This document shows, in pieces, positions 10,472-48,420 of a stretch of 59,038 nt of DNA (position 1 is the first letter of the stretch; each line of letters starts with the position of its first letter). This DNA comes from a bacterium. GTDB taxonomy: Bacteria > Patescibacteriota > Patescibacteriia > UBA9934. The position numbers and the translations under genes are program-made. The stretch is taken from NCBI GenBank assembly GCA_027592325.1, contig JAQCKO010000006.1, positions 1 to 59,038 on the forward strand. The letters run 5' to 3'. The notes beneath the pieces were generated by a model that was not told the origin of the DNA, searched no databases, and saw nothing but the letters and a program-made list of their open reading frames with translations.

Positions 10472-10520
10472 CACACTGGGCTTGTCTGCCGGCGGGCAGT
10501 ATGGCACGGGTTCAGCGTTT
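10472..10520. repeat. REP-like remnant with nested CTGCC..GGCAG hairpin
   Basis: GTCACACTGGGCTTG followed by TCTGCCGGCGGGCAG. Confidence 0.35.
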
Positions 10521-10589
10521 CTCGATTATAATTCGTTCGATCCCGTTTCCGTAGGAATACTGATTTGCAACAAGATATCTGAGTGACTT

Positions 10590-21975: not shown

Positions 21976-22159
21976 GCGCAACGATCACCAATGCACCAGT
22001 GACCCACGGTTCATTGACGAGCTGGACCAAGACATGCTCGATGGCCCTACCTTCACCATCGAATAACCCTGCGCCCGGACAACTGTCCGGGCGCGCTTTC
22101 TGTTCAAAACGAAAACCCCCACGTCATTCCTTGCGAAATTTCGTAGGGGCAGAGCGACG

Positions 22160-22591: not shown

Positions 22592-22744
22592 GCAACCTCC
22601 AAGTGGTTTGCATGTTTAGCCTAGCGCGATTTGATTCTATTGAAAAGCTATACTGGTTTTATAGAGGGTGATGTATCTCGCTTCTTCAATACTATACGGT
22701 TAATAAGATACGCAAATTCTCGAGCGAAGCGAGAGATCAATACG

Positions 22745-22808
22745 AATAGATCCCTCACATTCGTTCCCGCCTACGCTCTTCGAGCTTCGGACGGGCAGGC
22801 GGGAATGT
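22745..22808. repeat. AGATCCCTCACATTCG-type element with nested hairpin insertion
   Basis: Related to 56187-56215 and 58018-58047; the insert CTCTTCGAGCTTCGGACGGGCAGGC is shared with 45101-45126. Confidence 0.55.
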
Positions 22809-23039
22809 ACGAACAAACTCATTCACGTTTCCAGTCAAAATAGTCGATCTTCCCGACAATTCTGCATTTGTACGCGAAAGCATGTGAATCGCCTCAAGGA
22901 TTTCTGTATTTGTCATTTCTTCCTTCATATTTTTCAAAAATAAAACTCTCCAATCAATGGGAGTTTCATCGCTACCTTCCCTACCTTTTCATGATCTCAG
23001 AGAGCGTCCGTCAATCGAATTTTGCACAAGGAAGACGCT

Positions 23040-34258: not shown

Positions 34259-35380
34259 TTAATGCCTTGCCGTTAAATACACTCCCTCCACCTGCTCTGC
34301 AACCTTATCCCAAGAAAAATCATGCTCAACAATCGCGCGTGCCTCTTCCCCACCATCATGAACACGCGATGTACTCCGAAGAAGCGACTGAAGCTTTTTC
34401 GTTAAATCATCCACATCTCCTTTCTTAAATGTCTCCCCGGATTGCTTAATCGCCTCTTTATTCCCTGCGATATCGGAAACAAGCGGCATCACCCCCGCTG
34501 CCATTGCTTCGAGCACGACAACAGGCAAACCTTCTGAATCGGAAGGATGTACATACAAATATGCTCCGGCAAAAATCTTCTCTACCACATCATGTGGCTG
34601 CCTTCCTAAAAACCGAATCCGATCATCCCCATCCGCTAGGGCAAATAATGCATCAACATAGCGAGCAGTATCGCTTGTATCGCCAACGAGAACGAGTCTG
34701 CGAGTCGTTCTCAGTCGTCGAAACGCCTCAATTAAATAATGTAGGCCTTTTTCTGGCACAAGGCGTCCTACAAACAGGATATACTCTTTCGACTTGATGC
34801 TAAATGCGGCCAGCGCCTGGTCTAAGTCTTTTTTCTTATACGCAACAATCTCTGCGCCATTTGGTATATACACCACCTGTTTTCCGAATGTTTCGCGACA
34901 ATACATCTGAATTTCATGCGAGACGGCAATGGTGTAATGCGGAAAAAGCACTGAAGCACGCTCTGAACATCGCAAATACATCCGGCCAAATAACCCCCAT
35001 TTTGCATGTAACGCATCGCGCGCATGAAAGGTGGCGATGACAGTTGTTTTTGGTCGGAACAGCCGAACAAGCGCACCAAATGTTGACGCACCTACGCCGT
35101 GGTAATGAACAATGTCGTAAGGATGCAGGACTACGTGAAGCGTCGCAACAAAGGCATGTATACCAGCCTCAACCCCTTTTATTGGGATCGTTGGAAGATA
35201 GACAAGTGGAATAGTGTCGATATGCGACTCAGGCTTCGCATAGTATCGCCGACGCGCAGCAACTCGCACGGCATGACCAGCCTTAAGAAGTCGAAGCGAT
35301 ACTTGCCGCACATGCTCCTCAATGCCCCCAAAACGCGTTGCATCGCCAATACCTTTTTGTCCAATCATGAAAATACGCAT
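34259..35380 (-). CDS. Glycosyltransferase family 4
   Basis: GGIEEHV, VGRLVPEKG, PSDSEGLPVVVLEAM. Confidence 0.92.
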   Translation of the reverse strand: MRIFMIGQKGIGDATRFGGIEEHVRQVSLRLLKAGHAVRVAARRRYYAKPESHIDTIPLVYLPTIPIKGVEAGIHAFVATLHVVLHPYDIVHYHGVGASTFGALVRLFRPKTTVIATFHARDALHAKWGLFGRMYLRCSERASVLFPHYTIAVSHEIQMYCRETFGKQVVYIPNGAEIVAYKKKDLDQALAAFSIKSKEYILFVGRLVPEKGLHYLIEAFRRLRTTRRLVLVGDTSDTARYVDALFALADGDDRIRFLGRQPHDVVEKIFAGAYLYVHPSDSEGLPVVVLEAMAAGVMPLVSDIAGNKEAIKQSGETFKKGDVDDLTKKLQSLLRSTSRVHDGGEEARAIVEHDFSWDKVAEQVEGVYLTARH

Positions 35381-35697
35381 AGCAGAAGTATAACAAACCG
35401 TGTACCACCACACCTGGGCGTTAAAAGGGTGCTACATGAACCAAACGCTCCGTAACCAAGTTACGGAATGATGGGTTCATCGTTGATGTTAAACGAGCGA
35501 AGCGATTTTGTCACAACGTTCCGCAGTATGCGAAGTCCCGCCCTTCTTTATCAGCACAAACTTTCACTTCACAACAAATCTAATTTACCGCTTTAAACTC
35601 TCAATTTCAAGAGCGGGATTTGAGTGAAGTGAAGAAGAAATTATTGATTTTTTTCCTTAAATTTAGGGCTTTTTTTAATTTTTTTGTCCTTCGTAAC

Positions 35698-35726
35698 TTG
35701 ACAGGTGGGAAGAGGTCTGCTATGAT
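35698..35726 (+). promoter_or_regulatory. Sigma70 promoter with extended -10
   Basis: TTGACA-17-TATGAT preceded by TG. Confidence 0.75.
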
Positions 35727-35764
35727 GTAAAGTCGCAATTCCGCGACTAATGTAGGAGGACAAC

Positions 35765-36151
35765 ATGAAGTACGCTTTTGTTCGGTACGACGTAAATCGC
35801 AAGGTTGCCGATGGCGGCACCAGCTTCCATAGCGTTCTGATCAAGGGAGAGGCGTCTGAAACCCGCGAATCCTGCCAGAGGTGGATCGAGGAGAACTTCT
35901 CGCCCAACGGCCCGGTCAGGATCCTCTACCGATTCGAGGTACCGGAGGTGTGGACAGAGGATGCGGGCGAGTTCGACGGCTGCCTGAACAGCGCCCTCGA
36001 TGCGGTGACGGGTCTCGACGCACTCACTAACAGTCCTCTGGCGTCCGACCTTCTCGGCGCGATCTTCATGGCGGGGTTCACCTGTGGTATGAGGTTCGAC
36101 TCGGAACTGCAGTCGGCGTTCTACCGAGGTGGCGCAGCCAAGAATAAGTAG
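35765..36151 (+). CDS. Hypothetical protein (antisense minigene inside S1)
   Basis: 128 aa, SD AGGAGG, own promoter, hairpin CGCCCTGTTC/GGACAGGGCG at about 36174-36203. Confidence 0.8.
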   Translation: MKYAFVRYDVNRKVADGGTSFHSVLIKGEASETRESCQRWIEENFSPNGPVRILYRFEVPEVWTEDAGEFDGCLNSALDAVTGLDALTNSPLASDLLGAIFMAGFTCGMRFDSELQSAFYRGGAAKNK

Positions 36152-36296
36152 CTATCGTGTACTTCCGTCAAAGACGCCCTGTTCGAGACATCTTGGACAG
36201 GGCGCTTCACTTTCTGAGAGAAAAAATTGAAAAGAGCCCAATTAAAAATGAAAAGCAAAATCAATAATTTCTTCTTCACGCAACCGCATACTCAGT

Positions 36297-36382
36297 GTTG
36301 TGCGATGTCGCGTAGCGATGAGCACGACAGCGACGATAGGCGCCGCCGTTGTGACGAAGAAGCGAAGCGATTTTGTCACAAC
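36297..36382. repeat. Empty micro-cassette module B + mini-site + D
   Basis: Same module at 43499-43584 and 44632-44717. Confidence 0.8.
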
Positions 36383-36472
36383 GTTTCTGCATATGCGATG
36401 TTTTGCGTAGCAAATATGGGTGAATTGAGTAGGAGGTACGACGACGAACGGACCGCATATTCTGTGTTAGGC
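36376..36472. repeat. attC-like site S2
   Basis: TCACAAC..ATATGCG / CGCATAT..GTTAGGC. Confidence 0.75.
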
Positions 36473-36489
36473 GATGGATAAATAATTTT

Positions 36490-36927
36490 CTATCTATTCA
36501 TGTGAATTGCCAAAACCGTCGGTCTCAATCCTAAAGCGCGGCAGCCGAGGAGTCTGGAATCTCCTGCTAGTAAGTTTGGTTGGTGTCCTTCTCGGAAAAG
36601 AACTACAGGAGCGGGTATGACTGCACCGTTCCTGAGTCCATCTTCGATTTTTTGAAAATCACGTTTGCCTTCCAGATGCTCATGTATTTGTTCACTTGTC
36701 CATGTTGTGTCTCGAGAATCACAATTTTTCATATTTTCCCACTCTTCATCACTAAGCTCCTGTAGCTCTGCTCGTTTGAATGCTTCGATAAGGGAATTAA
36801 GAGCAATTCCAGACTCCTTGGCATGTCTTTCAAGTTCTCCCATTTCTTCTGCAAGTGATGGTTTTAGCCATTGAGGTTTTGGCAATTCATTTTCTGCGCC
36901 AGCTTCATATGATGGAAATTCACTCAT
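36490..36927 (-). CDS. Cassette hypothetical protein (possible ParB/Srx-like C-terminal motif)
   Basis: 145 aa; APVVL...LLAGDSRL loosely resembles ParB-N. Confidence 0.7.
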   Translation of the reverse strand: MSEFPSYEAGAENELPKPQWLKPSLAEEMGELERHAKESGIALNSLIEAFKRAELQELSDEEWENMKNCDSRDTTWTSEQIHEHLEGKRDFQKIEDGLRNGAVIPAPVVLFREGHQPNLLAGDSRLLGCRALGLRPTVLAIHMNR

Positions 36928-36956
36928 ATTGATAGTTTAAAAATTTTAAATCTTTC

Positions 36957-37045
36957 GCCTAACGGCGGCGCCTGATGCGATCGTTTCGAGAGATAAAACC
37001 GAAGGTTTTAGATCGAGAAATGTCGCATAGGCGCTGCCGTTGTGA
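36957..37045. repeat. attC-like site S3 (type A)
   Basis: AACGGCGGCGCCTGATGCGA...TCGCATAGGCGCTGCCGTT; followed by D at 37039-37073. Confidence 0.8.
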
Positions 37046-37066
37046 CGAAGAAGCGAAGCGATTTCG

Positions 37067-37184
37067 TCACAACGTTCGCGCATATGCAGAGTTGTTGCGC
37101 GGTACAATTTAGCGCGGAGCGCTCTACCGCGCAACAATTTGGGTGAGCGACCGCAAGGAGCGAACTGCATATGCGCTGTTGTAC
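37067..37184. repeat. attC-like site S4
   Basis: CGCATATGCAG / CTGCATATGCG arms. Confidence 0.78.
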
Positions 37185-37198
37185 GATGTGCGGCTTTC

Positions 37199-37609
37199 TT
37201 ATTCTTTTACCGGTGTTCCTTGGTGAAATTTTAATTTCCAACCTTTCGGCGTTTTGACCCAGATAGAGCTTCTATTACCTACCTCTACTTCTCCATCATA
37301 CTCAACTTCGCTGGTGTAAGTAACCTGAATGACATCTTGGGCGATGGGGCGCATTTCAAAATTTTTAAAAGGTAGCCTTGCTTTGATTTCATCCCGACGT
37401 GCACCAAGCGTATCTTCCCGTTGGTATATGCGCCCCGATCGCCCGAATTCAAAAAAATCCGGAGCAAGTACACTTTCCATATATACTCTGTCAAATCGTG
37501 TTTCAGCTATCCACATTGAATCTTCAAGCTGCCTTAGTTTTTCACGGTCCTCCTTGCTAATCTCAATCTCTCGTTCGTGGCTCATAGCTAACTCTTTTTT
37601 TGAATTCAT
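37199..37609 (-). CDS. NTF2-like / DUF4440 family protein
   Basis: LAPDFFEFGRSG, RSSIW, WKLKFHQGT. Confidence 0.85.
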   Translation of the reverse strand: MNSKKELAMSHEREIEISKEDREKLRQLEDSMWIAETRFDRVYMESVLAPDFFEFGRSGRIYQREDTLGARRDEIKARLPFKNFEMRPIAQDVIQVTYTSEVEYDGEVEVGNRSSIWVKTPKGWKLKFHQGTPVKE

Positions 37610-37657
37610 ATGTCATTCAGGTTACGTTAGTAAATGATTTTAAGAAAGCCGCATTTC

Positions 37658-37798
37658 GTACAGCGGCGGCGTGTATGAGAAGTTTCGCCGACTTCCTTAT
37701 CCTTATTATAGAGGAAGTGAAATTTGGGTGAAAGAAAAAGTGCAACCTTTGAAAATTATTACGCATTTTTTTCTTGAACCTCATACACGCTGTTATGT
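37658..37798. repeat. attC-like site S5 (R box degenerate: AGC)
   Basis: GCGTGTATGAG / CTCATACACGC arms; closely similar to S6. Confidence 0.72.
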
Positions 37799-38359
37799 GC
37801 TGTTGGTTGCCGATTTAATCGCACTGAATATTGAATGATAATCAATACTTTCAAAGTCGGTAGTGTCTATGTCAAAAACTTTGCCTCCTATATTAAGGGC
37901 CCGATATTCGCCTTTTAGTAGAACTTCTTTGAACTCATCATAGTTTTGATCGTCAACGTGACCTGGATGACGCTCGCGAGATTCCGAACGCTTTTTGAAA
38001 CGCTCAAAGAGAATTTCGCCGTCGGTTTTGCACATTACTTGCATTGCCTGAAAATCATATTTTTTCTGCAAATCAAGGAATCTCTCTTCGTCATATTCAG
38101 GTTTCAGTGGTGTTTCTATGATGAATGAATTTTTTGACTCTAGCAGCGTTTCGATGAGGTGATAGAGAATGTTATAACTTGCAATCCCTAGCTTCTTTGA
38201 CCATTCACGATCTTTCACGCCAAGAGAATCAAAGAGAGATTCCTTGATGTCATCACGACTAATTAAAGGCAGGCGAAATTCTCGTGCTATTTTCTTTGCA
38301 AGAGTCGTTTTTCCGGTACACGGAGGGCCCGATATTATTAAAAGCAAAGTTTTTGACAT
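37793..38359 (-). CDS. P-loop kinase (AAA_33-like)
   Basis: IISGPPCTGKTT; stop TAA inside the GCACATAAC R box. Confidence 0.85.
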   Translation of the reverse strand: MSKTLLLIISGPPCTGKTTLAKKIAREFRLPLISRDDIKESLFDSLGVKDREWSKKLGIASYNILYHLIETLLESKNSFIIETPLKPEYDEERFLDLQKKYDFQAMQVMCKTDGEILFERFKKRSESRERHPGHVDDQNYDEFKEVLLKGEYRALNIGGKVFDIDTTDFESIDYHSIFSAIKSATNST

Positions 38360-38389
38360 GTTTTTATTTTAACTTAGGCAACCAATTGC

Positions 38390-38531
38390 ACATAACGTTT
38401 GCGTGTGTGAGAAGTTTCGCCGACTTTCTTCATTTTATAAATAGAGGGGGCGAAATTTGGGTGAAAGAAATAGTGCAACCTTTGAAAATTATTACGCATT
38501 TTTTTCTTGAACCTCATACACGATGTTGTAC
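38390..38531. repeat. attC-like site S6
   Basis: CGTGTGTGAG / CTCATACACG arms. Confidence 0.78.
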
Positions 38532-38557
38532 GATGTTGCGAGACAACCGTCGTTGCA

Positions 38558-38863
38558 TTATTCCGTTCTATCTAAAATTATTCTTTGCTTAAAACCACCA
38601 CGTTCTTTCGCTTTTTTCTGGCGGACTTCTTCGAGCATCTGCAAATCCACACCTTTCAGAGCGCAAATTGCGTGTAAAACTTCTAAAATATCAGCGGCCT
38701 CTTCCACGCTTGGATTTTCTAGAAATTCACCGACTTCTTCGTGCAACTTGCGCGTCAAAGCTTCCTCGTACTCTTTTTCTTCAGCAATATGAGTAATCGG
38801 CGTCTCACCTTTATTTTGTATGATCTCGGGAATGTTATCCCTGACTAATTTGTTGTATTCCAT
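38558..38863 (-). CDS. MazG-superfamily NTP pyrophosphohydrolase (KLVRD-IPE type)
   Basis: YNKLVRDNIPEII, KLHEEVGEF, EAADILEV, RGGFKQRI. Confidence 0.85.
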   Translation of the reverse strand: MEYNKLVRDNIPEIIQNKGETPITHIAEEKEYEEALTRKLHEEVGEFLENPSVEEAADILEVLHAICALKGVDLQMLEEVRQKKAKERGGFKQRIILDRTE

Positions 38864-38908
38864 AAGAAAAAGCGGAATTAATATATAATAGGTTGTCTTG
38901 CGATTTCG

Positions 38909-39036
38909 TCACAACGTTTCTGACATGCGAAGTTGAAAACCCCCGCCTCCTAGTTCAATCTTATCAATAAGAGCAGGGTTTTCAATTTGGGTGAGGGCTT
39001 TCATAAAAAGCCCGAACCACATGTCCAGTGTTAGCT
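38909..39036. repeat. attC-like site S7
   Basis: GACATG / CATGTC arms; AATTTGGGTG...AACC core. Confidence 0.72.
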
Positions 39037-39205
39037 GAAATATTCCTTTTCTTTTCCTACGATAGTCGGTTGTTTTGAAAATTTTCAAATTTCTTTTCGA
39101 CAATGAGGAGGAAGAGCGAATATTAACAATTTAACACACAAATGGTAGTTTGTAATGTCATTTCTTGACCCGATCAGCTGTGGTTAGCTGGTATTGGAGG
39201 AGTCC

Positions 39206-39589
39206 ATGAATCGCACGATCAGGCTGACCGAGCTGTCTTTCGAGGACGGCATCACCAGACGGGACTCTGAGGTGAAGTACTTCGTTCAGGCGGAGTACAG
39301 CTACGTGGAAAATGAGGTCATCATGGGCCTTTACGCTGGTGACGAACACTTCGACCGAGTGTGGAGCTTTCCGATCGAGCTCCTGCTCGAGGGCCGAGTG
39401 GTCGACTTCAGCAACTTTGAAGGCCCTTACATCCTCGCCGATGCAGTACTTGCAATCGTCGCCGAGAACACGTCCGTCAGGCTCCACTTCGTGGAGGACC
39501 GAAGCGTAGTTAGCATCACGGTTTGTGATGAGACCGTCTCTCACCCTCTGGACAACGACGTGGCTCGCCGGATGTTCAGAGGGATCTGA
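39206..39589 (+). CDS. Hypothetical protein (antisense cassette minigene)
   Basis: SD GGAGGAG at 39196, ATG 39206; hairpin GAACCGCCTAC/GTGGGCGGTTC downstream. Confidence 0.8.
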   Translation: MNRTIRLTELSFEDGITRRDSEVKYFVQAEYSYVENEVIMGLYAGDEHFDRVWSFPIELLLEGRVVDFSNFEGPYILADAVLAIVAENTSVRLHFVEDRSVVSITVCDETVSHPLDNDVARRMFRGI

Positions 39590-39723
39590 CCTCCGATCGA
39601 CTCCCCGCCCCCTACGAACCGCCTACTGGTTCATCTGGTGGGCGGTTCTTCGTTTTAGAAAGAAATTTGAAAATTTTAAAACAATTGGGCGACAGCCCAG
39701 AAAAGAAAAGGAATATTTCAGCT

Positions 39724-39780
39724 AACAGCGACGATAGGCGCCGCCGTTGTGACGAAGAAGCGAAGCGGTTTCGTCACAAC
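39724..39780. repeat. Mini-site + empty micro-cassette D
   Basis: AACAGCGACGATAGGCGCCGCCGTT then GTTGTGACGAA...TTCGTCACAAC. Confidence 0.78.
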
Positions 39781-39867
39781 GTCAGGGATATGAGAAGTTG
39801 CGACCGTAAGGAGCAATTTGGGCGGAGGATTTTGTACAAAGCCGTAGCCTCATACACGCTGTTATAT
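39774..39867. repeat. attC-like site S8
   Basis: ATGAG / CTCAT arms; AAGTTGC..GCAATTTGGGCG core. Confidence 0.7.
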
Positions 39868-39953
39868 TCCCGAAGGGCTGAAATTTAGTGCAACGTCCCG
39901 AAGGGAAATTTTAGAGTTGTCGTGTCTAAAACAAAATTGTAGTCGGGCACACA

Positions 39954-40991
39954 CTAATTCTCAAATATTTTTTCAATCAATTTAAATTCTTTTTTATGGC
40001 AATCAAACTCAGCTTTTATTCCTAATGGCAAAATCCATTGCGGATCAGTATGACCAAAATCCATATTCGTGATTATCGGAAGACTTAAATTATTAAACTC
40101 AGTATTTACCACATTGAGAACATTTTCGTTTAAACTTTTCTTTTCATCTTCAGAATAGTCTCTTGGTCTTCCGATAAGCAATGCGGAGATTTTGTCAAAC
40201 ACTCCTTGTATTCCATAGTTTCGTAGCATCCATTTGACTTGGTCTGGAGATGGCTTGTCTTCAGATGTTTCTAAGAAAAGGATTTTGCCATTCCAAAAAT
40301 CATCATTAGGCCAATATTTTGTGCTTTTCATAAATTCAAGAACCTCAATACAACCGCCAAATAATTCTCCTTGAATTTTTGAACTTCCTTGTAAAATATT
40401 CCAGCCAGTATTTTTTGACATTGGTTTTACTTGCCCGACATTGGACTTGTCTCCCCAATCCAAATATCCCTCGGAATAAGAATCATATGACTTGTATTCA
40501 TAATTTTCTGGATTTTCAAATAAGATTGTTTTGACATGCTCTTGGAAATTTTTCCCTAATGCATCCCATTGAGAAAATCCTGCCATGATTGCAGGACCAT
40601 GTAGAGTGACAAGTCCTAATTGATTAAAGTATGTCAAAAGAGTGGTTGTATCAGAATAACCGATGATGATTTTTGGGTTTTTCCGAATTACATCTACACT
40701 TAGAAAAGGCATTATTCTTACAGAATCATCCCCGCCGATTGATACAAAAATTGCTTTCACTTCTTCATCAGCAAAAGCATCATTTATATCTTTGGCTCTA
40801 AATTCCGGATTTTTGTAAAGATAATCTGCATCTTTTCTTGCAGAGGGATATTCTTTAATTTTAAGACCTAAATTTTCAAGCGTCTTAATGCCTGATTCAT
40901 AAATATGAGGAAAAACACTTGGTCCGCCCCACGATGGAGATACAATTGCAACGATATCTCCTTTCTGTAATTTTTTTAGTTTGATTGCCAT
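39954..40991 (-). CDS. S66 family peptidase (LD-carboxypeptidase / MccF-like)
   Basis: IVSPSWG, SIGGDDS, IGYSDTT, LFLETSE, MDFGHTDP. Confidence 0.92.
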   Translation of the reverse strand: MAIKLKKLQKGDIVAIVSPSWGGPSVFPHIYESGIKTLENLGLKIKEYPSARKDADYLYKNPEFRAKDINDAFADEEVKAIFVSIGGDDSVRIMPFLSVDVIRKNPKIIIGYSDTTTLLTYFNQLGLVTLHGPAIMAGFSQWDALGKNFQEHVKTILFENPENYEYKSYDSYSEGYLDWGDKSNVGQVKPMSKNTGWNILQGSSKIQGELFGGCIEVLEFMKSTKYWPNDDFWNGKILFLETSEDKPSPDQVKWMLRNYGIQGVFDKISALLIGRPRDYSEDEKKSLNENVLNVVNTEFNNLSLPIITNMDFGHTDPQWILPLGIKAEFDCHKKEFKLIEKIFEN

Positions 40992-41063
40992 ACTATTTTG
41001 ATAAATTGATTGATTTATATAATTTGTATGCCCGACTACTCCTAATTAATTTGCACGACAATT

Positions 41064-41150
41064 GAATATACGGTGGCGCCTGATGCGTTCGTTTCGAGAG
41101 ATAAAACCGAAGGTTTTAGATCGAGAAATGTCGCATAGGCGCTGTTGTGC
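41064..41150. repeat. attC-like site S9 (type A, left R box degenerate)
   Basis: GAATATAC instead of ATATAAC; type A body. Confidence 0.72.
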
Positions 41151-41177
41151 GATGTTATAAAATATTAAATTTTATCC

Positions 41178-41726
41178 TTACAATTTTAATACAGATTTCA
41201 AAGCGGCTGGAAGTTCGTTTACTCCATCGTCACCGCTAAAATGTTTCATATCTTGTTGAATAATAATGTCTGCGCTGAGGTTATTCCTGAAGAAGTCGGC
41301 ATAATGAAGCGAAACATACGGATCATTGGATGAATGAATGGCTACAAATTTATCGCAGTGAGATTTTATTTTAGACCAATCTATTTTACTTTGGAAAAAT
41401 GTGTCCAATTCATCATAGCCCAGATTTGAAGTGAAACCAGCGACTAAAACTGCGCCGCCAATTTTTTGATCTGCCTTGAGCGACTCGATATATCTCAATA
41501 TTATAATACTACCCAAACTATGACCAACGAAATAGCAGTTTTCATCTGGGCTACCGACAAGTTTTTTCAAATGATCTAGCCATTCATTCATCTTTGGTTT
41601 CGCTGAATTTGGCATCAAAGGAACAATTACCTCAAACCCGTGTTTCTCCAAATCATTCTTGAGCCAAGGATACCACCCATGTTCGGGTGAACCTTCCCAG
41701 CCGTGTATTAAAATTGCTTTTTTCAT
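41178..41726 (-). CDS. RBBP9/YdeN-family alpha/beta hydrolase
   Basis: IHGWEGSP...WYPWL, VGHSLG, HSSNDPYV, KHF. Confidence 0.92.
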   Translation of the reverse strand: MKKAILIHGWEGSPEHGWYPWLKNDLEKHGFEVIVPLMPNSAKPKMNEWLDHLKKLVGSPDENCYFVGHSLGSIIILRYIESLKADQKIGGAVLVAGFTSNLGYDELDTFFQSKIDWSKIKSHCDKFVAIHSSNDPYVSLHYADFFRNNLSADIIIQQDMKHFSGDDGVNELPAALKSVLKL

Positions 41727-41755
41727 AATCGTAAAATGTAATATTTTTTATTTCG

Positions 41756-41832
41756 TCACAACGTCAGTTGTATCTGATGTTGCGAAGCAAATATGGGTGG
41801 AACGTAGCGGAACCGCATAGCCAGTGTTATGT
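41756..41832. repeat. attC-like site S10
   Basis: TCACAAC...GGGTG..AACCGCATAGCCAGTGTTATGT. Confidence 0.7.
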
Positions 41833-41858
41833 GCAATACCCTTCGTCCGTCATCTTTG

Positions 41859-42677
41859 TCATAGCAAACCTTTACCAGAATTGATAACAATGATTTTATC
41901 TTCCTTTTTTATTTTCAAATCTGACAACACCCCAAATACAATAGCACTGGAAGGCTCACATTTGATGTATTTTTTTGCAAGTGAGTAGGCTTGTTTTATT
42001 GTTTCTTCTGACAATCTAATTACTTTGTGTTTGCGCCAAAATATTGATTTCATTTTTGAGGAATAAGGTGTCCAGGGAGTGTGAAGTTTATCAGCAAAAG
42101 ACGGACTACTTTTTGGCGCAACACCAATAAGCGTGGTATTCAATTTGTATTTTTTTATTCCATTAAACAAGCCTGCGAACGTCTCGCCGCTACCCACTGG
42201 CGTGATTAAAAAATTTGGCCGGCTGTTTTTGATTTCTTTGATGATGTCCTCATATGCATCGTGCCAGCCATTAGTCACGTCCCAGATGACTTCCTCGTCA
42301 GTTTCTCTCGCCAAAGAAATAACCTCTTCAGGTTTGAGTATGTGAGATGACAAATCAACCTGAATAACTTTGCAAGAAACGGTGACGAGATTTTCGTAAA
42401 TTGTGGCAGGAAGTTTTTTATCAACAATACAGACGACTTTAAGATTGGAGCCGTTGGCAAATTTGGCGAGAGAAACGCCAGCATTTCCGGACGTGATGAG
42501 TGCTAGCTTATCAATATGTTCATCCAGCGCTTTCTTGACGATAGCTTCGGAGCGCCTATCTTTGTATGTCCCAAATGGATTTTTAGACTCGTCTTTAATA
42601 AAAAGATTAGGCAGACCAAATTTTTTACAAAAATATTCTTCTTTAATTAAGGGGGTGTTGCCTGATTTATATTTCAT
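41859..42677 (-). CDS. PLP-dependent fold-type II enzyme (threonine synthase/cysteine synthase-like)
   Basis: GNTPLI, KDESKNPFGTYKDR, TSGNAG, PVGSGET, CEPSSA. Confidence 0.88.
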   Translation of the reverse strand: MKYKSGNTPLIKEEYFCKKFGLPNLFIKDESKNPFGTYKDRRSEAIVKKALDEHIDKLALITSGNAGVSLAKFANGSNLKVVCIVDKKLPATIYENLVTVSCKVIQVDLSSHILKPEEVISLARETDEEVIWDVTNGWHDAYEDIIKEIKNSRPNFLITPVGSGETFAGLFNGIKKYKLNTTLIGVAPKSSPSFADKLHTPWTPYSSKMKSIFWRKHKVIRLSEETIKQAYSLAKKYIKCEPSSAIVFGVLSDLKIKKEDKIIVINSGKGLL

Positions 42678-42748
42678 AATGACAAAATCATTGTGACATT
42701 GTATAAAAACATTTCTACAATGTCAGCAATAAGGACGAAGGGCATTGC

Positions 42749-42900
42749 ACATAACGGCGGCGCCTGATGCGATCGTTTCGAGAGATAAAACCGAAGGTTT
42801 TAGATCGAGAAATGTCGCATAGGCGCTGTTGCGACCAACGGGAGCGAGAATGTAGGTGAAGGCCGAGCCGAGGCCTGAACCGCATATCGTGCTGTTAGGC
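42749..42900. repeat. attC-like sites S11 (type A) and S12 separated by a 12-nt body
   Basis: Type A at 42753-42830; GTTGCGACCAAC at 42828-42839; S12 ends AACCGCATATCGTGCTGTTAGGC. Confidence 0.7.
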
Positions 42901-43012
42901 GAGGGTTCATTTTGGCTTCCTTATTATTTAATCAAGAAAAGATCCAAAATGAAAGCGCAGCGCCCCCTTACGTTTATTTTTCCAAACTGCTTTTCACACC
43001 AGCTTTCGCTAC

Positions 43013-43041
43013 TTGACAGTTTGCCCACCTCATGGTAATCT
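43013..43041 (+). promoter_or_regulatory. Sigma70 promoter with extended -10
   Basis: TTGACA-17-TAATCT preceded by TG. Confidence 0.7.
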
Positions 43042-43099
43042 GCAACGTCCTTTGGACTGCGCCTCAAGTGGGGCGTAAACCCGCACTTTGGAAGAAGAA

Positions 43100-43303
43100 A
43101 TGAAAGTCAAGACTTTCGTGGTCGGATTGGTCGATGGGGTGGTCCCATCGTTGACACGACTCGACGAATGCGTCGCCGAGCTCGGTAATGTCGTCATCCA
43201 CAGCTTGGTCGACACCGTCTACTCGGCGGATAGCAATTCGTTAGGAAGACCGCCGGGTGAGCGCATCGCTCGAGTGATCGTCTACACACCCGAGAGCAGG
43301 TAG
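43100..43303 (+). CDS. 67-aa hypothetical protein (antisense cassette minigene)
   Basis: Own promoter; hairpin CCCGTGTTTG/CAAACACGGG downstream. Confidence 0.7.
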   Translation: MKVKTFVVGLVDGVVPSLTRLDECVAELGNVVIHSLVDTVYSADSNSLGRPPGERIARVIVYTPESR

Positions 43304-43419
43304 CCCCCCGTGTTTGCACGCAACATCGTCAAACACGGGCGGGCAAACACATTCACTCTACCGAGTGTTTTTTTATTGTACAAAATTTTCATGAAAAGCG
43401 ATTTGATAAAATAAATGTC

Positions 43420-43584
43420 GCCTAACGGCGGCGCCTGATGCGATCGTTTCGAGAGATAAAACCGAAGTTTTTAGATCGAGAAATGTCGCATAGGCGCTGT
43501 TGTGCGATGTCGCGTAGCGATGAGCACGACAGCGACGATAGGCGCCGCCGTTGTGACGAAGAAGCGAAGTGATTTCGTCACAAC
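43420..43584. repeat. attC-like S13 (type A) + B + mini-site + D
   Basis: Near-identical to 44553-44717. Confidence 0.82.
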
Positions 43585-43687
43585 GTTTATGAATATCTGA
43601 TGTTTTCATCCCGTTTCATGGAGATAAAGTTTATTTTTCAGGCATTCTTTGTTCGTAAATATTCCGCCCAGATATTCATTGTTATGT
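43578..43687. repeat. attC-like site S14
   Basis: ATGAATATCTG / CAGATATTCAT arms. Confidence 0.78.
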
Positions 43688-43731
43688 GATGTAGCCAGAA
43701 ATTTCTATTCCTAAATTATTTTGTTGGTAAT

Positions 43732-44002
43732 TTATTGTTTGACTTCGATGCTTTCCGAAGCAATATTTTTTTGCTTATCTTTCTTGCCCACGACTAATTG
43801 ATAGATTTTTCTTACAACAATAATGAATACTACAAACCCTACAATTTCAGCGACTGCCTCAAGATTTGCTGCTGCCCTTGGGCCTGAAATTCCCATCGGA
43901 CCTAACACAAATGGCCCAGACAATAAAAGCGTGTATTTAGCGATCATCCATGCGACGTAACCTACTAATACACTTGCGATACCTCCGAGTATTTTTTTTC
44001 AT
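43732..44002 (-). pseudogene. Small membrane protein cassette, frameshifted in an A8 run right after ATG
   Basis: ATG 44002 + A8 is out of frame with KKILGGIASVLVGYVAWMIAKY...; A7 would give a ~89-aa two-TM protein. Confidence 0.6.
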
Positions 44003-44114
44003 AAGCTTTTGAATAACGTTATGTAATTGGTTAAATTTTATCACAAGCTATGTTCGACCTGAAATAAATTGCCAAAAAAATCTAAAAAATAATAAAGAAA
44101 TTTCTGGCTATTTC

Positions 44115-44192
44115 ACATAACGTTTCTGAATATCTGAAGTTGCGATAGCAATTTGGGTGAAGCGAAGCGGAACCAGATATTCAGTGTTATCG
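44115..44192. repeat. attC-like site S15
   Basis: CTGAATATCTG / CAGATATTCAG arms. Confidence 0.8.
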
Positions 44193-44203
44193 GATGTAAT
44201 TTT

Positions 44204-44527
44204 TTATTTATCTTTTTTCAGCCATGCATTGCTGATCCACTTTTTATCAATAGCTTCTTCTAAGTCGATACCGAGAAGATGAGCATTGACCATTGCCATA
44301 CCAACAACATCAGCAAGCTCTTTTGCCACCTCTCTTTTTGAAACATCTTCCGTCACATGTTTCTCTGGACGACTCTTTTTTCTATGAATCAAAACTGCTT
44401 GCGAAAATTCACCAACCTCTTCATATAATTTTATCAATGCGAAATCTTCGTCAATTTCAACATCATACTCCTTACCGTAACGGATAGCATTCTCCACTAC
44501 TTTTTGTTGTATATCTTTGAATTTCAT
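44204..44527 (-). CDS. MazG-like nucleotide pyrophosphohydrolase
   Basis: KLYEEVGEFSQA, KELADVV, DLEEAIDKKW. Confidence 0.85.
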   Translation of the reverse strand: MKFKDIQQKVVENAIRYGKEYDVEIDEDFALIKLYEEVGEFSQAVLIHRKKSRPEKHVTEDVSKREVAKELADVVGMAMVNAHLLGIDLEEAIDKKWISNAWLKKDK

Positions 44528-44552
44528 AAAAAGAAAAATTAAAAATTATTTC

Positions 44553-44717
44553 CGATAACGGCGGCGCCTGATGCGATCGTTTCGAGAGATAAAACCGAAG
44601 GTTTTAGATCGAGAAATGTCGCATAGGCACTGTTGTGCGATGTCGTGTAGCGATGAGCACGACAGCGACGATAGGCGCCGCCGTTGTGACGAAAAAGCGA
44701 AGCGATTTCGTCACAAC
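44553..44717. repeat. attC-like S16 (type A) + B + mini-site + D
   Basis: First module of the array in transcription order. Confidence 0.82.
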
Positions 44718-44775
44718 TCGTTTTTATCCGAACATTATAATACGATTTTAGCAATTATTGTACATAATACGAACT
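44711..44775 (-). promoter_or_regulatory. Candidate attI site and Pc promoter
   Basis: GATAAAAACGAG|TTGTGA core, 9-bp direct repeat, extended -10 TGCTAAAAT. Confidence 0.45.
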
Positions 44776-44901
44776 ATCCCTGTTGTTGAGGCAGCCTTAT
44801 TCGATTATGCCATTTGACATGAAATCCACCAAACACCTTCTAGCGGTGGATTCTTACCCCATCAAAAGAAAAACACCCAAGCTTTCACTTGCGTACTTTT
44901 C

Positions 44902-44977
44902 TGGTGCGCCGGGTGGGATTCGAACCCACGACCACGGGCTTAAAAGGCCCTTGCTCTACCAACTGAGCTACCAGCGC
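44902..44977 (-). tRNA. tRNA-Lys(UUU)
   Basis: 76-nt cloverleaf, anticodon TTT, TTCGAAT T-loop, encoded CCA. Confidence 0.97.
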
Positions 44978-45027
44978 TTGCTTGTTATTTTTTCCCTTTT
45001 TTACTCAGGACTCCGTATCTCACATTC

Positions 45028-45134
45028 GTCATCCCTGCGAAGACAGGAATCCATCGAGTAGATTCTTCTGCTTAGGTCAGAGGCCTACACTTCCGCCGAC
45101 ACTCTTCGAGCTTCGGACGGGCAGGCAGGATGAC
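45028..45134. repeat. REP-like element with nested hairpin insertion
   Basis: GTCATCCCTGCGAAGACAGGAATCC ... CAGGATGAC. Confidence 0.65.
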
Positions 45135-45180
45135 AGTAAGCAGTTTGGTGGCACGATGATAGCAAAAAACAAAGAATAAA

Positions 45181-46248
45181 TCAAGTTTTCGCCAATCCAA
45201 TCATATCTAATATCTTCTCTGCGCCGCCTTGTTCAAAGACAATCCTCGCCGCCGATTCCATTTTTGCTTGTGTTGAACGGTCATTTGCAAGCTTCAGCAC
45301 CTCTTGCTTCATGACCTGAGGATTCACATGAGTAAGTCGAATCGCCGCTCCCCGTTTTTCATATAGCCGTGCATTCTCTTCCTGATGCCCTGAAAGAGGC
45401 ATCAAAATCGCCGGTTTTCCGTACCCTGCAAGTTCCATAAGGGTCCCCATTCCTGCCCTGCAAACGACAATATCGGCAGCGGCATACCAACGTGCCATTT
45501 CTCCATCAAGCAACTCCTCGACCGCATACCCGTCGGTGGAACGAAGGTTTTCCGGTTTTTTCCCTTTTCCTGAAAGATGCAGCACATTCACCTCTTTAAG
45601 TAAATCAGGAAGAATAGACGCGAGCATAGTATTGATTTGTACGGCTCCCGTCCCCCCACCAAAAAAGAATACCGTGGGCTTTTTTGGGTCAAGGTGTTTT
45701 TCCTGCATGAATGCAAATGTACCCCTCTCTACCTGTGGTTTCCGAATCAGCGCGCCTACATGTTCGGTACGACGTTTGAAATGCTGCCGCGTTTCATCCC
45801 ATGTTACACTAATATGCTCTGCAAACGGTGCGACCACTTTATTTGCAAGAAGTGGGAGCGCGTCAAGCTGATGGACCCAAACCGGAATTCCCAGCATTTT
45901 TGCGGCATACACAACAGGAATTCCAACATACCCTCCCGCAACAAATACCCGCTCTGGACGAATATCTTTGAGCAACTTGATCGCCTGCGCTGTTGCGAGC
46001 ACCAGATGCGGAGCAATAAACGGCCAAAGATATGTTCGCGTCCTGTCGAGTTTTGGAGCAGATAATGCATGAAATGCGGCACCGGTTGCCACAATAAGTG
46101 CGCGTTCTGGACCATGCGGCGTTCCAATCCAATGAAAACGCGCTGCCTCAACACGTTCTTTATATGCGTCTTGAACAGCAAGTAGCGGTACTACAGGGCC
46201 GAGGGTTCCCCCTCCTGCAAATACAATGCAATGTTTTAATCCTTCCAT
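45181..46248 (-). CDS. murG: Undecaprenyl-PP-MurNAc-pentapeptide GlcNAc transferase
   Basis: GGGTLGPVVP, AGGYVGIP, GGGTGA, CRAG, HQEENA. Confidence 0.93.
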   Translation of the reverse strand: MEGLKHCIVFAGGGTLGPVVPLLAVQDAYKERVEAARFHWIGTPHGPERALIVATGAAFHALSAPKLDRTRTYLWPFIAPHLVLATAQAIKLLKDIRPERVFVAGGYVGIPVVYAAKMLGIPVWVHQLDALPLLANKVVAPFAEHISVTWDETRQHFKRRTEHVGALIRKPQVERGTFAFMQEKHLDPKKPTVFFFGGGTGAVQINTMLASILPDLLKEVNVLHLSGKGKKPENLRSTDGYAVEELLDGEMARWYAAADIVVCRAGMGTLMELAGYGKPAILMPLSGHQEENARLYEKRGAAIRLTHVNPQVMKQEVLKLANDRSTQAKMESAARIVFEQGGAEKILDMIGLAKT

Positions 46249-46252
46249 ACCC

Positions 46253-47356
46253 CTAGTGTTTCATATGCGTCGAGATCTGCAAAATCACTCCGACAGCAGC
46301 AAGCGATATGGCAAGCGATGTTCCTCCAAAGCTGAGAAATGGAAGCGGGACGCCGGTAATCGGAAGTAGCGCCACCATTGATCCAATATTTAAAAATGCC
46401 TGCACGGCAAACCAGGCAGTAATACCCACGACAACATAACGTGCAAAACCAGCAACATGTTCAGCAATGTACAATGCACGCCACAGCATGAAGCCGTACG
46501 CTGTTAAAAACATAATCGTGAGCAAAAATCCAAGCTCTTCACTCATTACCGCAAAAATCGAGTCTCCGAGGACTTCGGGTAAGTACTGATACTTTTGCAG
46601 TGAGTGTCCGAATCCTCTTCCAAAAAATCCCCCTGAACCGATGGCTAGTAATGCTTGATTCACCTGGTATCCAACACCAAGCGGATCAAGTTCAGGGTGT
46701 AAAAATGTCGCAAATCGTTCTGATCGATACGGTGATGAGCTGATAAGCACTGCTAATGTTGTCACGCCAAATGCTCCTAAACCAAATAAATATGTCATTG
46801 GCCCACCTGCAACAAAGTAAACAATAAACGCCATGGCAGCAATAACGGAAAGTGTTCCCATGTCTGGTTGTAGAAGCATGAGCGCAGCAATGATGCCAAG
46901 TGAAAATAAAAACGGTACAAAGCCAGCATTGAAATCGGCAAGATCGCGACCACGTTTCTCAAGCCATGCAGCGAGATAAAAGAGAAACGTGAGTTTTACA
47001 ATTTCCGCAGGTTGAAAAGATATTGGTCCAATAACCACCCAACTTTTTGCGAATGTCCCAAAATCTGTCCCTATTCCAGGAACGAAAACGAGTGCAAGAA
47101 GCAAGATAGATACTCCCATCATGAACAGTGCATACCGCTGATACAACGCATGTGGGAGGCGCATTGCAGCAACCATCAAGATCACTCCCGGGATGAAACC
47201 TTTTATCAACTGGTTTTTAATGTAGTAATAACTATCACCAAAACGTGCGAATCCAAGGGGACCTGAAGCCGATGCAAGCATAATCAGCCCGAAGATTGCC
47301 ATCCCAATGGCGAGTGCAAGAAACACGTAATCAACATGCCCACGAGTTTGTGTCAT
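46253..47356 (-). CDS. ftsW: Peptidoglycan glycosyltransferase FtsW
   Basis: FQPAEIVK, QPDMGT, YLPEVLGDSIF, TGVPLPFLSFGG. Confidence 0.93.
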   Translation of the reverse strand: MTQTRGHVDYVFLALAIGMAIFGLIMLASASGPLGFARFGDSYYYIKNQLIKGFIPGVILMVAAMRLPHALYQRYALFMMGVSILLLALVFVPGIGTDFGTFAKSWVVIGPISFQPAEIVKLTFLFYLAAWLEKRGRDLADFNAGFVPFLFSLGIIAALMLLQPDMGTLSVIAAMAFIVYFVAGGPMTYLFGLGAFGVTTLAVLISSSPYRSERFATFLHPELDPLGVGYQVNQALLAIGSGGFFGRGFGHSLQKYQYLPEVLGDSIFAVMSEELGFLLTIMFLTAYGFMLWRALYIAEHVAGFARYVVVGITAWFAVQAFLNIGSMVALLPITGVPLPFLSFGGTSLAISLAAVGVILQISTHMKH

Positions 47357-48420
47357 AACTGTGTGATATCAATCATCGCAGCGTCTAAAAAGGCAAGAAT
47401 AAGCCCTAGACTCGCTGCAATCCATGAAATCACCCAAAATCGCATAACAACTTTTGGCTCCGGCCATCCGAGTGCTTCATAATGGTGATGGATCGGAGCA
47501 ACTTTGAATACTTTTTTCCCTCTGAATTTCTTCGAAAGAAGTTGAATGATCGTACTGACGGCCTCTAGAACAAAAACAAATCCAATAATTGGCAGCAACA
47601 GTGCTGAATTCGTAAACATTGCCACAACACCAAGAGTGACTCCGAGCGACATTGCCCCGGTATCCCCCATGAAAAATCGTGCGGGATATATATTGAACCA
47701 CAAAAAGGCAAGTAATGCGCCCATCATTGCTCCACAAAATGCCGCAAGATCGTAACGTCCCTGTAGGAGTGCAATTCCTGCAAATGCTCCGAATGCCGAG
47801 ACGAGCGTCCCACCAGCAAGACCATCAAGCCCATCGGTTTGATTCACAGAAAACGCCGTCCCTACAATCACAAGAACAAAAAGCGGCACAAACCAAATGC
47901 CAATATCAATAAATCCATAGAGCGGTACAAGCAGCACATGCCAATCAAGCTTATCGTAAAACCACCATGCACCAATAAGGGCAACAATCGTATAAAGTAC
48001 CAGCCGATGACGAATATCAATTCCTCCCCCATTCGGACCAATCTTTCGTACATTGAAAAAATCATCAAGAAGGCCGATCACACCGGCAGCAACAAGGGTA
48101 AACAACGGAAGCCATGTTTCTTCACGTGTCAAAAAGCTGAATTCTGCAATACGGGAGCCGGGAAATAATTCTTTCAGCAACACGAGCGTAAGCGCAACAA
48201 TAAGCACGGTCCCCCAAATCAGCACGCCGCCCATTGTTGGAGTCCCTGCTTTCTCCTTGTGCATTTTTGTAAAGATGGGCGCCTGTTTTGATGTACGTAA
48301 TGATTTTCCAAGACGATATTTATACAAAAAATGCGTAAGAACCGGCGTCCAGACAATAGCGAGGACGAACGTAAGCGTCGTTAAAACAAGAATTTTAAGG
48401 AGAACAAAAGGCTCAAGCAT
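47353..48420 (-). CDS. mraY: Phospho-N-acetylmuramoyl-pentapeptide transferase
   Basis: GTPTMGG, GLLDD, TDGLDGL, FMGDTG, APIHHHYE. Confidence 0.96.
   Translation of the reverse strand: MLEPFVLLKILVLTTLTFVLAIVWTPVLTHFLYKYRLGKSLRTSKQAPIFTKMHKEKAGTPTMGGVLIWGTVLIVALTLVLLKELFPGSRIAEFSFLTREETWLPLFTLVAAGVIGLLDDFFNVRKIGPNGGGIDIRHRLVLYTIVALIGAWWFYDKLDWHVLLVPLYGFIDIGIWFVPLFVLVIVGTAFSVNQTDGLDGLAGGTLVSAFGAFAGIALLQGRYDLAAFCGAMMGALLAFLWFNIYPARFFMGDTGAMSLGVTLGVVAMFTNSALLLPIIGFVFVLEAVSTIIQLLSKKFRGKKVFKVAPIHHHYEALGWPEPKVVMRFWVISWIAASLGLILAFLDAAMIDITQL

Follow-up and report, generated by a model that had tools for sequence, protein, structure and literature searches.

The closest described relatives of the locus reported here are the sedentary chromosomal integrons, such as the superintegron of Vibrio, and the clusters of attC sites lacking integron-integrases (CALINs), as defined by IntegronFinder (Neron et al. 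2022, PMC9024848). Integrase-less arrays of this kind are familiar from a wide range of taxa, and integrons of archaea were described in 2022. An additional domain specific to IntI was reportedly set up by Messier and Roy in 2001 as the criterion for intI, and IntegronFinder is said to use it. Discrete gene modules bounded by recombinase sites are also found in the pdif modules of Acinetobacter plasmids, which are served by a Xer-family enzyme and whose sites are short, double-stranded and of alternating orientation. Here, we analyzed a 59,038-nt stretch of bacterial DNA, positions 1 to 59,038 of contig JAQCKO010000006.1 from assembly GCA_027592325.1 (hereafter, the window), in which positions 35482 to 44776 very probably form a chromosomal integron-type array with an attI-like site and no adjacent recombinase gene, static unless an enzyme acts on it in trans. 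In IntegronFinder terms the array would be a CALIN, though one with an attI-like site; at least two close attC sites, as recognized by our own covariance model, R1, and no nearby integrase were seen.

The array shares with chromosomal integrons and CALINs a one-directional run of mostly single-ORF (open reading frame), promoterless cassettes. Its sites are imperfect palindromes with RYYYAAC...GTTRRRY ends, laid out as R''-L''...L'-R' over 50 to 150 nt, in one orientation and one per cassette, with the crossover at G/TT (the slash marks the crossover point) and with complementarity between each cassette's own ends. Stop codons lie within a site, reversed cassettes bring their own promoters, and a putative attI stands at the head, accompanied in relatives by a divergent tyrosine recombinase. 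The content is also typical, with MazG, kinase or zeta-like proteins, hydrolases and unknowns. In total, about 16 hairpin sites of a single polarity separate 12 single ORFs, one per ORF-bearing unit, and several ORF-less mini-units, and repeat analysis resolved three components: an A-type site of about 85 nt (5 copies), the B-type sites and a 35-nt mini-palindrome (6 copies). Read on the minus strand from the attI-like site, each unit starts at G/TT, usually holds one ORF and then ends in an attC hairpin. Since each minus-strand ORF has its attC on the downstream side, top strand here means the minus strand, and bottom strand the plus strand.

An earlier note on this DNA, written from the letters alone, had described an integron-like array of about 16 sites, each cassette having matching ends, and had suggested covariance models as a check. 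In the window, R1 gave 9 strong matches (E ≤ 1e-6), 3 weaker ones (E of about 0.01 to 0.02) and 3 marginal ones, all on the minus strand; with two further A-type copies that have no separate R1 match, this agrees with the estimated number of sites. The matching ends that the note had singled out are also in place, namely GTTAGGC at 36466 with GCCTAAC at 36957-36963, GTTATGT at 37792 with ACATAAC at 38390-38396, and GTTATCG at 44186 with CGATAAC at 44553-44559. As it had proposed, the stop codon of the AAA_33 kinase ORF (37793-38359, minus) lies in an R box, as the TAA of ACATAAC on the coding strand, and an internal AATTTGGGYG...AACC core recurs, a degenerate pattern for it giving 6 matches in the window against 0.00 expected from shuffles.

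The same sites occur widely outside the window. A degenerate B-type pattern, searched in GTDB genomes with one genome per species, matched at least 119 loci where about 2 were estimated by chance; the sites form arrays of 2 to 9 on the same strand. By record title, about 47 of these loci are from the candidate phyla radiation (CPR), about 32 are archaeal (DPANN, methanogens, and anaerobic methanotrophic archaea, ANME), and the rest belong to other or unclassified bacteria. R1, built from an alignment (A1) of 60 non-redundant sites, gave 132 matches in 60 of these loci, typically in same-strand arrays of 2 to 9 sites at cassette-like spacing. In the proposed fold of the family, an R box and an 11-bp L stem lead to a three-way junction from which two inner hairpins arise; the conserved unpaired bases of the junction read, on the top strand, ...G-GTTAC (hairpin A) TC-CRCCCAWAT (hairpin B) CTTC.... 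In the 60 sites, 85% of cells pair, against 26 to 43% in controls with slid partners; the covariation score, 0.267, compares with 0.09 in shuffles and was reached by none of 500 shuffles, and both partners change in 16 of 25 pairs. The L stem is ungapped, with 11 of 11 positions pairing in 22 of the 60 sites and at least 9 of 11 in 40. The A-type attC has the same R/L architecture as the B-type, with one long hairpin instead of the junction.

Compared with canonical attC features (PMC3053210, PMC8946536), these sites differ in several respects. The T-N6-G extrahelical bases are absent from the 60-site alignment, and asymmetry is instead provided by spacers of 1 nt versus 3 to 5 nt between the R and L boxes. 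Conservation of the R box extends to 12 bp and includes a fixed mismatch of 2 nt, and the covarying three-way junction with its conserved unpaired core also sets them apart from classical integrons. Moreover, a motif, CTTCGTATA, is common to the attC 3' arm and the attI-like site, suggesting that recognition is more sequence-specific than in classical integrons.

Folding of the window sites also favored one strand. The bottom strand was more stably folded than the top strand in all 4 sites tested; for the attC at 44110-44197, the values were -13.9 kcal/mol for the plus (bottom) strand and -9.4 kcal/mol for the minus strand. The small hairpin loops on the bottom strand are GCGAAGC, GCGTAGC or GCGATAGC, and we take hairpins of the GCGAAGC type to be the very stable GNA-loop DNA mini-hairpins. 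By analogy, the bottom-strand stability and the GNA-type loops would fit recombination of a folded bottom strand, the strand that is recombined in integrons (review PMC8946536). Two other roles for the sites were tried and rejected. A promoter for the next cassette inside each attC was discarded, as no consistent -35/-10 pair occurs in the sites, and so was a ribozyme, hammerhead-like or other, at the three-way junction, whose sequences do not fit; Rfam 15, run on the window, returned only tRNAs, even at E ≤ 1.

Next, relatives were searched for recombinases, as the earlier note had recommended. An IntI1 sequence served as probe only. An IntI-like recombinase is encoded in 16 of the at least 119 site-bearing loci, and in 10 of the 11 loci whose strands were compared (7 full-length recombinase genes and 4 partial) the gene adjoins the array and diverges from it. 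The best NCBIfam model of these array-associated recombinases is NF040815, "site-specific tyrosine recombinase/integron integrase" (193 to 234 bits); TIGR02249 (integron integrase) matches in two pieces at 187 to 226 bits, below its cut-off of 265. Their best solved relative is VchIntIA (2A3V, E of 1.5e-44), which aligns in two pieces skipping residues 183-241, followed by XerA (3e-40) and then XerD. They are simple two-domain enzymes of about 270 aa. In a multiple alignment, a stretch of about 41 residues, equivalent to IntI1 192 to 250 or so, the IntI-specific domain, is missing from all 11 full-length recombinases, which keep the catalytic residues and the C-terminal SPL motif of IntI. The missing segment holds the IntI residues that contact two extrahelical bases in the IntI-attC complex (PMC3053210), so a domain-less recombinase matches attCs without the extrahelical bases that the domain contacts. 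By sequence, the array-associated enzyme is closest to integron integrases and archaeal XerA.

The association also held in the reverse direction. Scanning metagenomes with the recombinase alignment yielded 80 loci, and among the 16 with a recombinase at least 49% identical to that of L067 (a 376-kb contig of a Saccharibacteria metagenome-assembled genome, or MAG, that carries the recombinase) and at least 600 nt of upstream sequence, 15 had R1 matches upstream on the opposite strand. Among more distant relatives of the enzyme (38 to 46% identity), only a few had upstream R1 matches. The recombinase family as a whole counts more than 6,900 proteins at E ≤ 1e-40, nearly all of those listed being 270 to 271 aa long, which their sources call "integron integrase", "XerD" or plain "recombinase".

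At the head of the window array, the attI-like site was recognized by direct alignment with relatives. In 11 complete loci (alignment A3), a conserved attI-like site lies about 120 to 135 nt upstream of the recombinase start codon; it has TTCGTATA-type repeats and ends in ...AAACGAG/TT, after which the first cassette begins. The window site, on the minus strand from 44776 to 44717, reads ...AGTTCGTATTATGTACAA...TGTTCGGATAAAAACGAG/TTGTGACGAAAT, aligns with the 11-locus site and likewise ends in GAG/TT, so that, by its sequence, a putative attI with a G/TT crossover heads the array as in classical integrons. This likeness is seen only in the direct alignment, blastn-short having found no similarity between the array's head or tail and other loci. 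The recombinase gene would be expected to start at about 44840; instead, tRNA-Lys begins at 44902. No tyrosine recombinase was found by Pfam in the 42 window ORFs of at least 178 aa and 8 shorter cassette ORFs, tblastn of the 11 array-associated recombinases against the window gave no match and no remnant, and none is present within 10 kb past the right end of the window. An IntI with the additional domain adjoining the array, as in classical integrons, was thus seen neither in the window nor in relatives. The earlier note had likewise recognized no integrase and had taken the recombinase to be elsewhere or lost; as the attI-like site is kept and the recombinase is absent, that reading holds.

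An independent Logan contig (L004, equal to window 44664-47536) spans the attI/tRNA-Lys junction, which is therefore not the assembly chimera of one pipeline. In a Ca. Uhrbacteria MAG, an 82-kb contig (L207, JAUSEV010000048.1) begins exactly at GAG/TT, 120 nt before the recombinase gene, and the array is on a separate contig of the same MAG (L075), suggesting that the first cassette varies within the population, a situation in which an assembler would break off at just this point. This contig carries the recombinase and is non-syntenic with the window at the array locus. Judging from the sequence, the integrase appears to have been lost from the window platform or never to have stood beside it.

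We then compared individual cassettes between genomes. Window 39765-41070 is 91.6% identical to L067 over 1307 nt, and the common block is exactly one cassette, an LD-carboxypeptidase ORF with its downstream attC. Homology ends exactly at the AAC/G and G/TT crossover points and the neighbors differ, one side of the cassette being an A-type site in the window and a B-type site in L067. A second difference came from a sister assembly, the 87-kb scaffold_435 of the ENA metagenome assembly ERZ23495042, which is 99.95% identical to the window; the window sequence is also present in Logan contigs of run SRR2027816. The sister assembly has one extra unit of 684 nt, consisting of a B-type site, a 143-aa ORF with 24-nt own-end repeats and no NCBIfam family, and an A-type site. 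These two comparisons point to cassette mobility. Units bounded at G/TT that move independently are indicated by the L067 cassette, and the cassette-level difference among relatives that the earlier note had proposed to look for is present in the sister assembly, although its mechanism is ambiguous. We also observed that the attC of the common cassette (window 39769-39872, L067 3217-3320) has had hairpin A and one arm of its L stem replaced by the counterparts from a different type of attC; this exchange leaves the L stem of the window copy mismatched, suggesting gene conversion between attCs.

The complementarity of each cassette's own ends extends well beyond the 7-mers of the R box. Five window cassettes have own-end inverted repeats of 23 to 28 nt, 86 to 100% complementary (I4, I9, I10, I11 and I13), which are private to each unit. 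In a survey of 89 cassettes bounded by two detected sites, complementarity of at least 16 nt was found in 26 (1.2% of mismatched control pairs) and of at least 20 nt in 20 (0.6% of control pairs). The arms carry the fixed 2-nt mismatch at positions 10-11, GTT-NNNN-GAAAT against ACATC-NNNN-AAC. Long own-end repeats are therefore a family trait, and this cassette-specific pairing of 16 to 30 nt outside the R box, in about 30% of cassettes, differs from classical integrons. Within the array the arms belong to different cassettes and thus cannot pair there; excision as a circle would let them lengthen the R-box stem. Possible roles are the stabilization of the free cassette's attC for insertion or an RNA stem around each cistron.

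The array would work by analogy with integrons. The plus (bottom) strand of each attC would fold as single-stranded DNA into an R box (AAC/GTT, about 12 bp), the 11-bp L stem and, mostly, a three-way junction. A tyrosine recombinase would bind the R and L boxes and cut at AA/C, and cassettes would be excised as circles and inserted again at attI; in relatives, the 270-aa recombinase without the IntI-specific domain would take this role. Forward cassettes would be transcribed from the attI end, and the three reversed GC-rich ORFs would use their own promoters and terminators. At the window locus, the recombinase gene may have been deleted or may never have been beside this copy. The array in this genome is probably frozen unless a recombinase encoded at another place in the genome, or in the community, acts in trans.

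That the array works like an integron, as the earlier note had it, is supported by homologous sites elsewhere adjoining a divergent recombinase and an attI-like site, and by the cassette common to L067. Its membership in the IntI-defined family in the strict sense is not established, because the relatives' recombinase is not a canonical IntI, lacking the additional domain, and the attCs lack extrahelical bases. Beyond this, we lean, if only slightly, toward the view that the window holds an orphan array belonging to a separate lineage of integrons, very common among CPR bacteria, archaea (DPANN and others) and MAGs of anaerobes, with a 270-aa domain-less integrase similar to IntI and XerA, attCs with an asymmetric spacer, an R-box mismatch and a junction core instead of extrahelical bases, and private end stems. 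This lineage may be a sister or an ancestral form of integrons. Current finders require the IntI domain and would therefore call all such platforms CALINs.

Several observations weigh against the integron-type reading. The IntI-specific domain is necessary for IntI activity. Together with the missing extrahelical bases, its absence from the recombinases means that the mechanism may differ from that of classical integrons. Recombination itself is something we infer from sequence, and none was observed. The extra unit of the sister assembly sits between identical 149-nt repeats, so that homologous recombination or assembly collapse explains it equally well. In addition, 4 of the 60 seed sites of R1 come from the window, and many of the related loci are short MAG contigs with uncertain binning.

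In one rival explanation, the array is a classical CALIN, and a canonical IntI with the additional domain acts on it from a gene located elsewhere; the domain-less enzymes beside related arrays would then be unrelated Xer-type housekeeping enzymes. The R boxes do fit RYYYAAC/GTTRRRY, a study of archaeal MAGs reported canonical IntIs in some of them and otherwise mostly CALINs (Ghaly et al. 2022, PMC9668308), the recombinase family is very large and is called XerD by JGI, and a "Cand" group of CPR recombinases has been treated as Xer-like (Smyshlyaev et al. 2021, PMC8138268). However, a domain-bearing IntI was found in none of the at least 119 attC-bearing loci, domain-less recombinase and array are tightly linked whichever of the two is taken as the starting point, in an integron geometry and with a conserved attI-like site, and the attCs lack precisely those T-N6-G bases that the missing domain contacts in IntI. 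We therefore consider this explanation unlikely. The Xer enzymes could also be involved in another way, as in the pdif modules, with the host's chromosome-dimer resolvase moving modules between double-stranded Xer sites. The scores of the associated recombinase for the XerA-like model NF040815 and the inverted repeats flanking the modules would be expected in such a system, yet all sites here have one orientation, not the alternating one that Xer/dif modules require, and they are long, imperfect, covarying single-strand hairpins of 60 to 150 nt rather than 28-bp double-stranded sites. The inverted repeats at the module ends are cassette-specific beyond 12 nt, and the recombinase gene stands at the array head beside the attI-like site, as in an integron, which leaves a Xer/dif-type system with hardly any probability.

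It is also very improbable that the hairpins are intergenic repeats (repetitive extragenic palindromes, miniature inverted-repeat elements or terminators) or structured RNAs, with the cassette look as a by-product. They are intergenic and repeated, some overlap terminator-like predictions, and a conserved unpaired core with covarying stems is what structured RNAs have. Against this stand the lack of any Rfam match noted above, a whole ORF-plus-hairpin unit common to different phylum-level lineages with breakpoints at G/TT, own-end complementarity specific to each cassette, the linkage of the sites to a recombinase and an attI-like site, and DNA-type GNA mini-hairpin loops on the non-coding strand, the bottom strand folding better.

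Among known systems, the archaeal integrons come close. They too are arrays in MAGs of DPANN and of methanogens or ANME, mostly CALINs, with cross-domain cassette sharing indicated, and about 32 of the at least 119 loci found here are archaeal. That study accepted only IntIs with the additional domain and does not mention CPR/Patescibacteria, and it does not describe a domain-less recombinase, a junction core or long own-end repeats (Ghaly et al. 2022, PMC9668308). The enzyme resembles XerA and the "Cand" Xer-like recombinases (NF040815; PMC8138268) in its length of about 270 aa, its two domains and its conserved catalytic residues. It differs from XerA in having VchIntIA as best structural match and in keeping the SPL motif of IntI, and it differs from a chromosome-dimer resolvase in being placed like intI, beside attI and cassette arrays. 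In the literature, whose coverage here was incomplete, we found no report of CPR integrons, of attCs built in this way or of attC arrays linked to a domain-less recombinase, and we have moderate confidence that this attC/recombinase variant is truly undescribed.

For organisms such as CPR bacteria and DPANN archaea, whose genomes are tiny and which live on other cells, a gene-capture platform common to them and their neighbors would be a main route for accessory genes; one cassette is 91.6% identical across two phylum-level CPR lineages. If the domain-less recombinase is the active enzyme, the integron definition is too narrow, many CALINs in MAGs are complete integrons, and experiments could address the step from a Xer-like enzyme to an integron integrase. 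For attC recognition and cassette formation, new leads come from the junction core and the long own-end stems.

The features of the array are listed in Table 1. Pfam families were found for 7 of the 12 cassette ORFs, one match being weak: DUF4440, an AAA_33/zeta-like kinase, two MazG-like proteins, an LD-carboxypeptidase, a serine hydrolase and a pyridoxal phosphate (PLP) enzyme. The remaining 5 ORFs have no family in the Pfam and NCBIfam results. The GC content is 34 to 43% in forward cassette ORFs, 56 to 59% in reversed ORFs and 48 to 49% in the flanks.

Table 1. Features of the array, from its head (attI-like site) to its distal end; positions are those of the window.
Feature	Position	Strand	Basis
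Gap where the recombinase gene should begin; then tRNA-Lys, murG	44777-44901		No remnant
attI-like site, array head; three direct TCG(T/G)AT repeats, end ...TTCGGATAAAAACGAG/TT, crossover G 44717	44717-44776	-	
Candidate cassette promoter TGTACA-16-TATTAT within attI-like region, towards array	44737-44764	-	Consensus scan 9/12, weak
Mini-palindrome GTTGTGACGAA-(GCGAAGC loop)-TTCGTCACAAC, ORF-less, first unit after attI-like site	44683-44717		D3; inverted repeats I1-I7
A-type attC	44553-44638	-	Repeat family D2; R1 18.8 bits, E 0.012
MazG-like cassette ORF, 107 aa	44204-44527	-	Pfam
B-type attC, three-way junction with TCACCCAAAT core	44110-44197	-	R1 83.8 bits, E 3.9e-19
Cassette ORF, 71 aa, no family match; own-end inverted repeat 26 nt (I10)	43732-43947	-	
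B-type attC, divergent interior without core	43573-43692	-	R1 34.9 bits, E 1e-6
A-type attC	43420-43505	-	Repeat family D2; R1 17.7 bits
Reversed cassette ORF, 67 aa, 57% GC, own promoter-like site and terminator	43100-43303	+	
Composite/degenerate attC, B-type 3' part joined to adjacent A-type site	42802-42905	-	R1 18.9 bits, E 0.012
A-type attC	42749-42834	-	Repeat family D2
PLP-dependent enzyme (PALP) cassette ORF, 272 aa	41859-42677	-	Pfam; own-end inverted repeat I13
B-type attC, degenerate L stem, poor fold	41751-41837	-	R1 41.2 bits
Serine hydrolase cassette ORF, 182 aa	41178-41726	-	Pfam
A-type attC, AAC shortened to AC	41064-41150	-	Repeat family D2; R1 11 bits, E 1.2
LD-carboxypeptidase (S66) cassette ORF, 345 aa; cassette common to L067	39954-40991	-	Pfam
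B-type attC of LD-carboxypeptidase cassette; accompanies ORF in L067	39769-39872	-	R1 62.9 bits
Reversed cassette ORF, 127 aa, 56% GC, terminator 39616-39648; perfect 28-nt own-end inverted repeat (I4)	39206-39589	+	
B-type attC	38904-39041	-	R1 69.1 bits; fold -25.3 kcal/mol, z -5.1
Cassette ORF, 101 aa, weak MazG/PRA-PH-like match	38558-38863	-	Pfam
B-type attC, long hairpin, 91% identical to 37653-37801 copy	38388-38536	-	R1 51.6 bits
AAA_33/zeta-toxin-like kinase cassette ORF, 188 aa	37793-38359	-	Pfam
B-type attC, R box holds kinase ORF stop codon	37653-37801	-	R1 50.4 bits
DUF4440 cassette ORF, 136 aa	37199-37609	-	Pfam; own-end inverted repeat I9
B-type attC	37062-37189	-	R1 64.5 bits
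A-type attC, D2 reference copy	36957-37045	-	Fold -29.1 kcal/mol, z -7.1
Cassette ORF, 145 aa, no family match	36490-36927	-	
B-type attC	36371-36477	-	R1 58.8 bits
Split B-type attC	35506-36308	-	Partial R1 matches 35506-35654 and 36273-36308; inverted repeat I11, 100%
Reversed ORF, 128 aa, 59% GC, terminator 36175-36204	35765-36151	+	
Degenerate 35-nt mini-palindrome copy, distal array end	35482-35517		Repeat family D3
Other mini-palindrome copies	36348-36382, 37039-37073, 39746-39780, 43550-43584		D3

The three reversed ORFs, small plus-strand genes at 35765-36151, 39206-39589 and 43100-43303, stand out by their GC content amid a context of 34 to 48%. None of the three matches Pfam or NCBIfam, and all come with a promoter-like site and an intrinsic terminator of their own; the first is preceded by TTGACA-17-TATGAT (35698-35726), the region's best sigma-70-like promoter. 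They look like self-expressed cargo of a GC-rich donor; candidates for such cargo are toxins, immunity proteins and genes derived from a host. The first also lies inside the split attC, whose hairpin A is a perfect 23-bp stem (35629-35651 with 36257-36279) with a 605-nt loop containing a complete transcription unit of promoter, ORF and terminator. In effect, the gene is carried within the variable portion of an attC, not between attCs. The 35-nt palindrome, GTTGTGACGAA-GAAGCGAAGCGA-TTTCGTCACAAC with its GCGAAGC loop, is present in 6 copies including the degenerate one and looks like an empty cassette made of two end repeats only. Together with an A-type site it makes up a 178-nt composite repeat, in 3 to 4 copies.

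The window is that of a small-genome bacterium, its genes being almost all minus-strand core genes. On the left, the array is flanked by genes for a P-type ATPase, Mur ligases and a GT4 glycosyltransferase (34259-35413), and on the right by tRNA-Lys (44902-44977, minus), MurG, FtsW, MraY and CTP synthase. Among the genomes fetched for comparison, the best DNA matches of the core genes are from Ca. Uhrbacteria, and the window encodes a DUF4012 protein; the CPR origin that the earlier note had thought probable is supported by these two observations, not proven. Another Ca. Uhrbacteria contig (L038, LCMS01000006.1, positions 1504-2372 and 5902-7347) has a B-type array about 4 kb from homologues of the window genes at 9902-11470 (M16 peptidase/Pro-tRNA ligase), a chromosomal position other than that of the window array.

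In the wider family, an attC variant containing ...GCGTATAACAAGGGATATACGGTTCAGCCCTCGGCTCGGGCTTCACCCAAATTTTTCTTCC... is nearly identical in MAGs labeled Kerfeldbacteria, Omnitrophota, Chlorobium, Methanosarcinales, Gammaproteobacteria and Ignavibacteria, and in five loci (L009, L047, L062, L077 and L081) an identical 36-nt sequence (TGCGCTCTCCTCCTTTCAGTCGTCGGGGCGTATAAC) precedes it. This distribution points either to a very recent cross-domain spread or to the mis-binning of one mobile unit. Finally, away from the array, the 1-kb bin at 22001-23000 of the window has a GC content of 54%, against about 45% in the neighboring bins.

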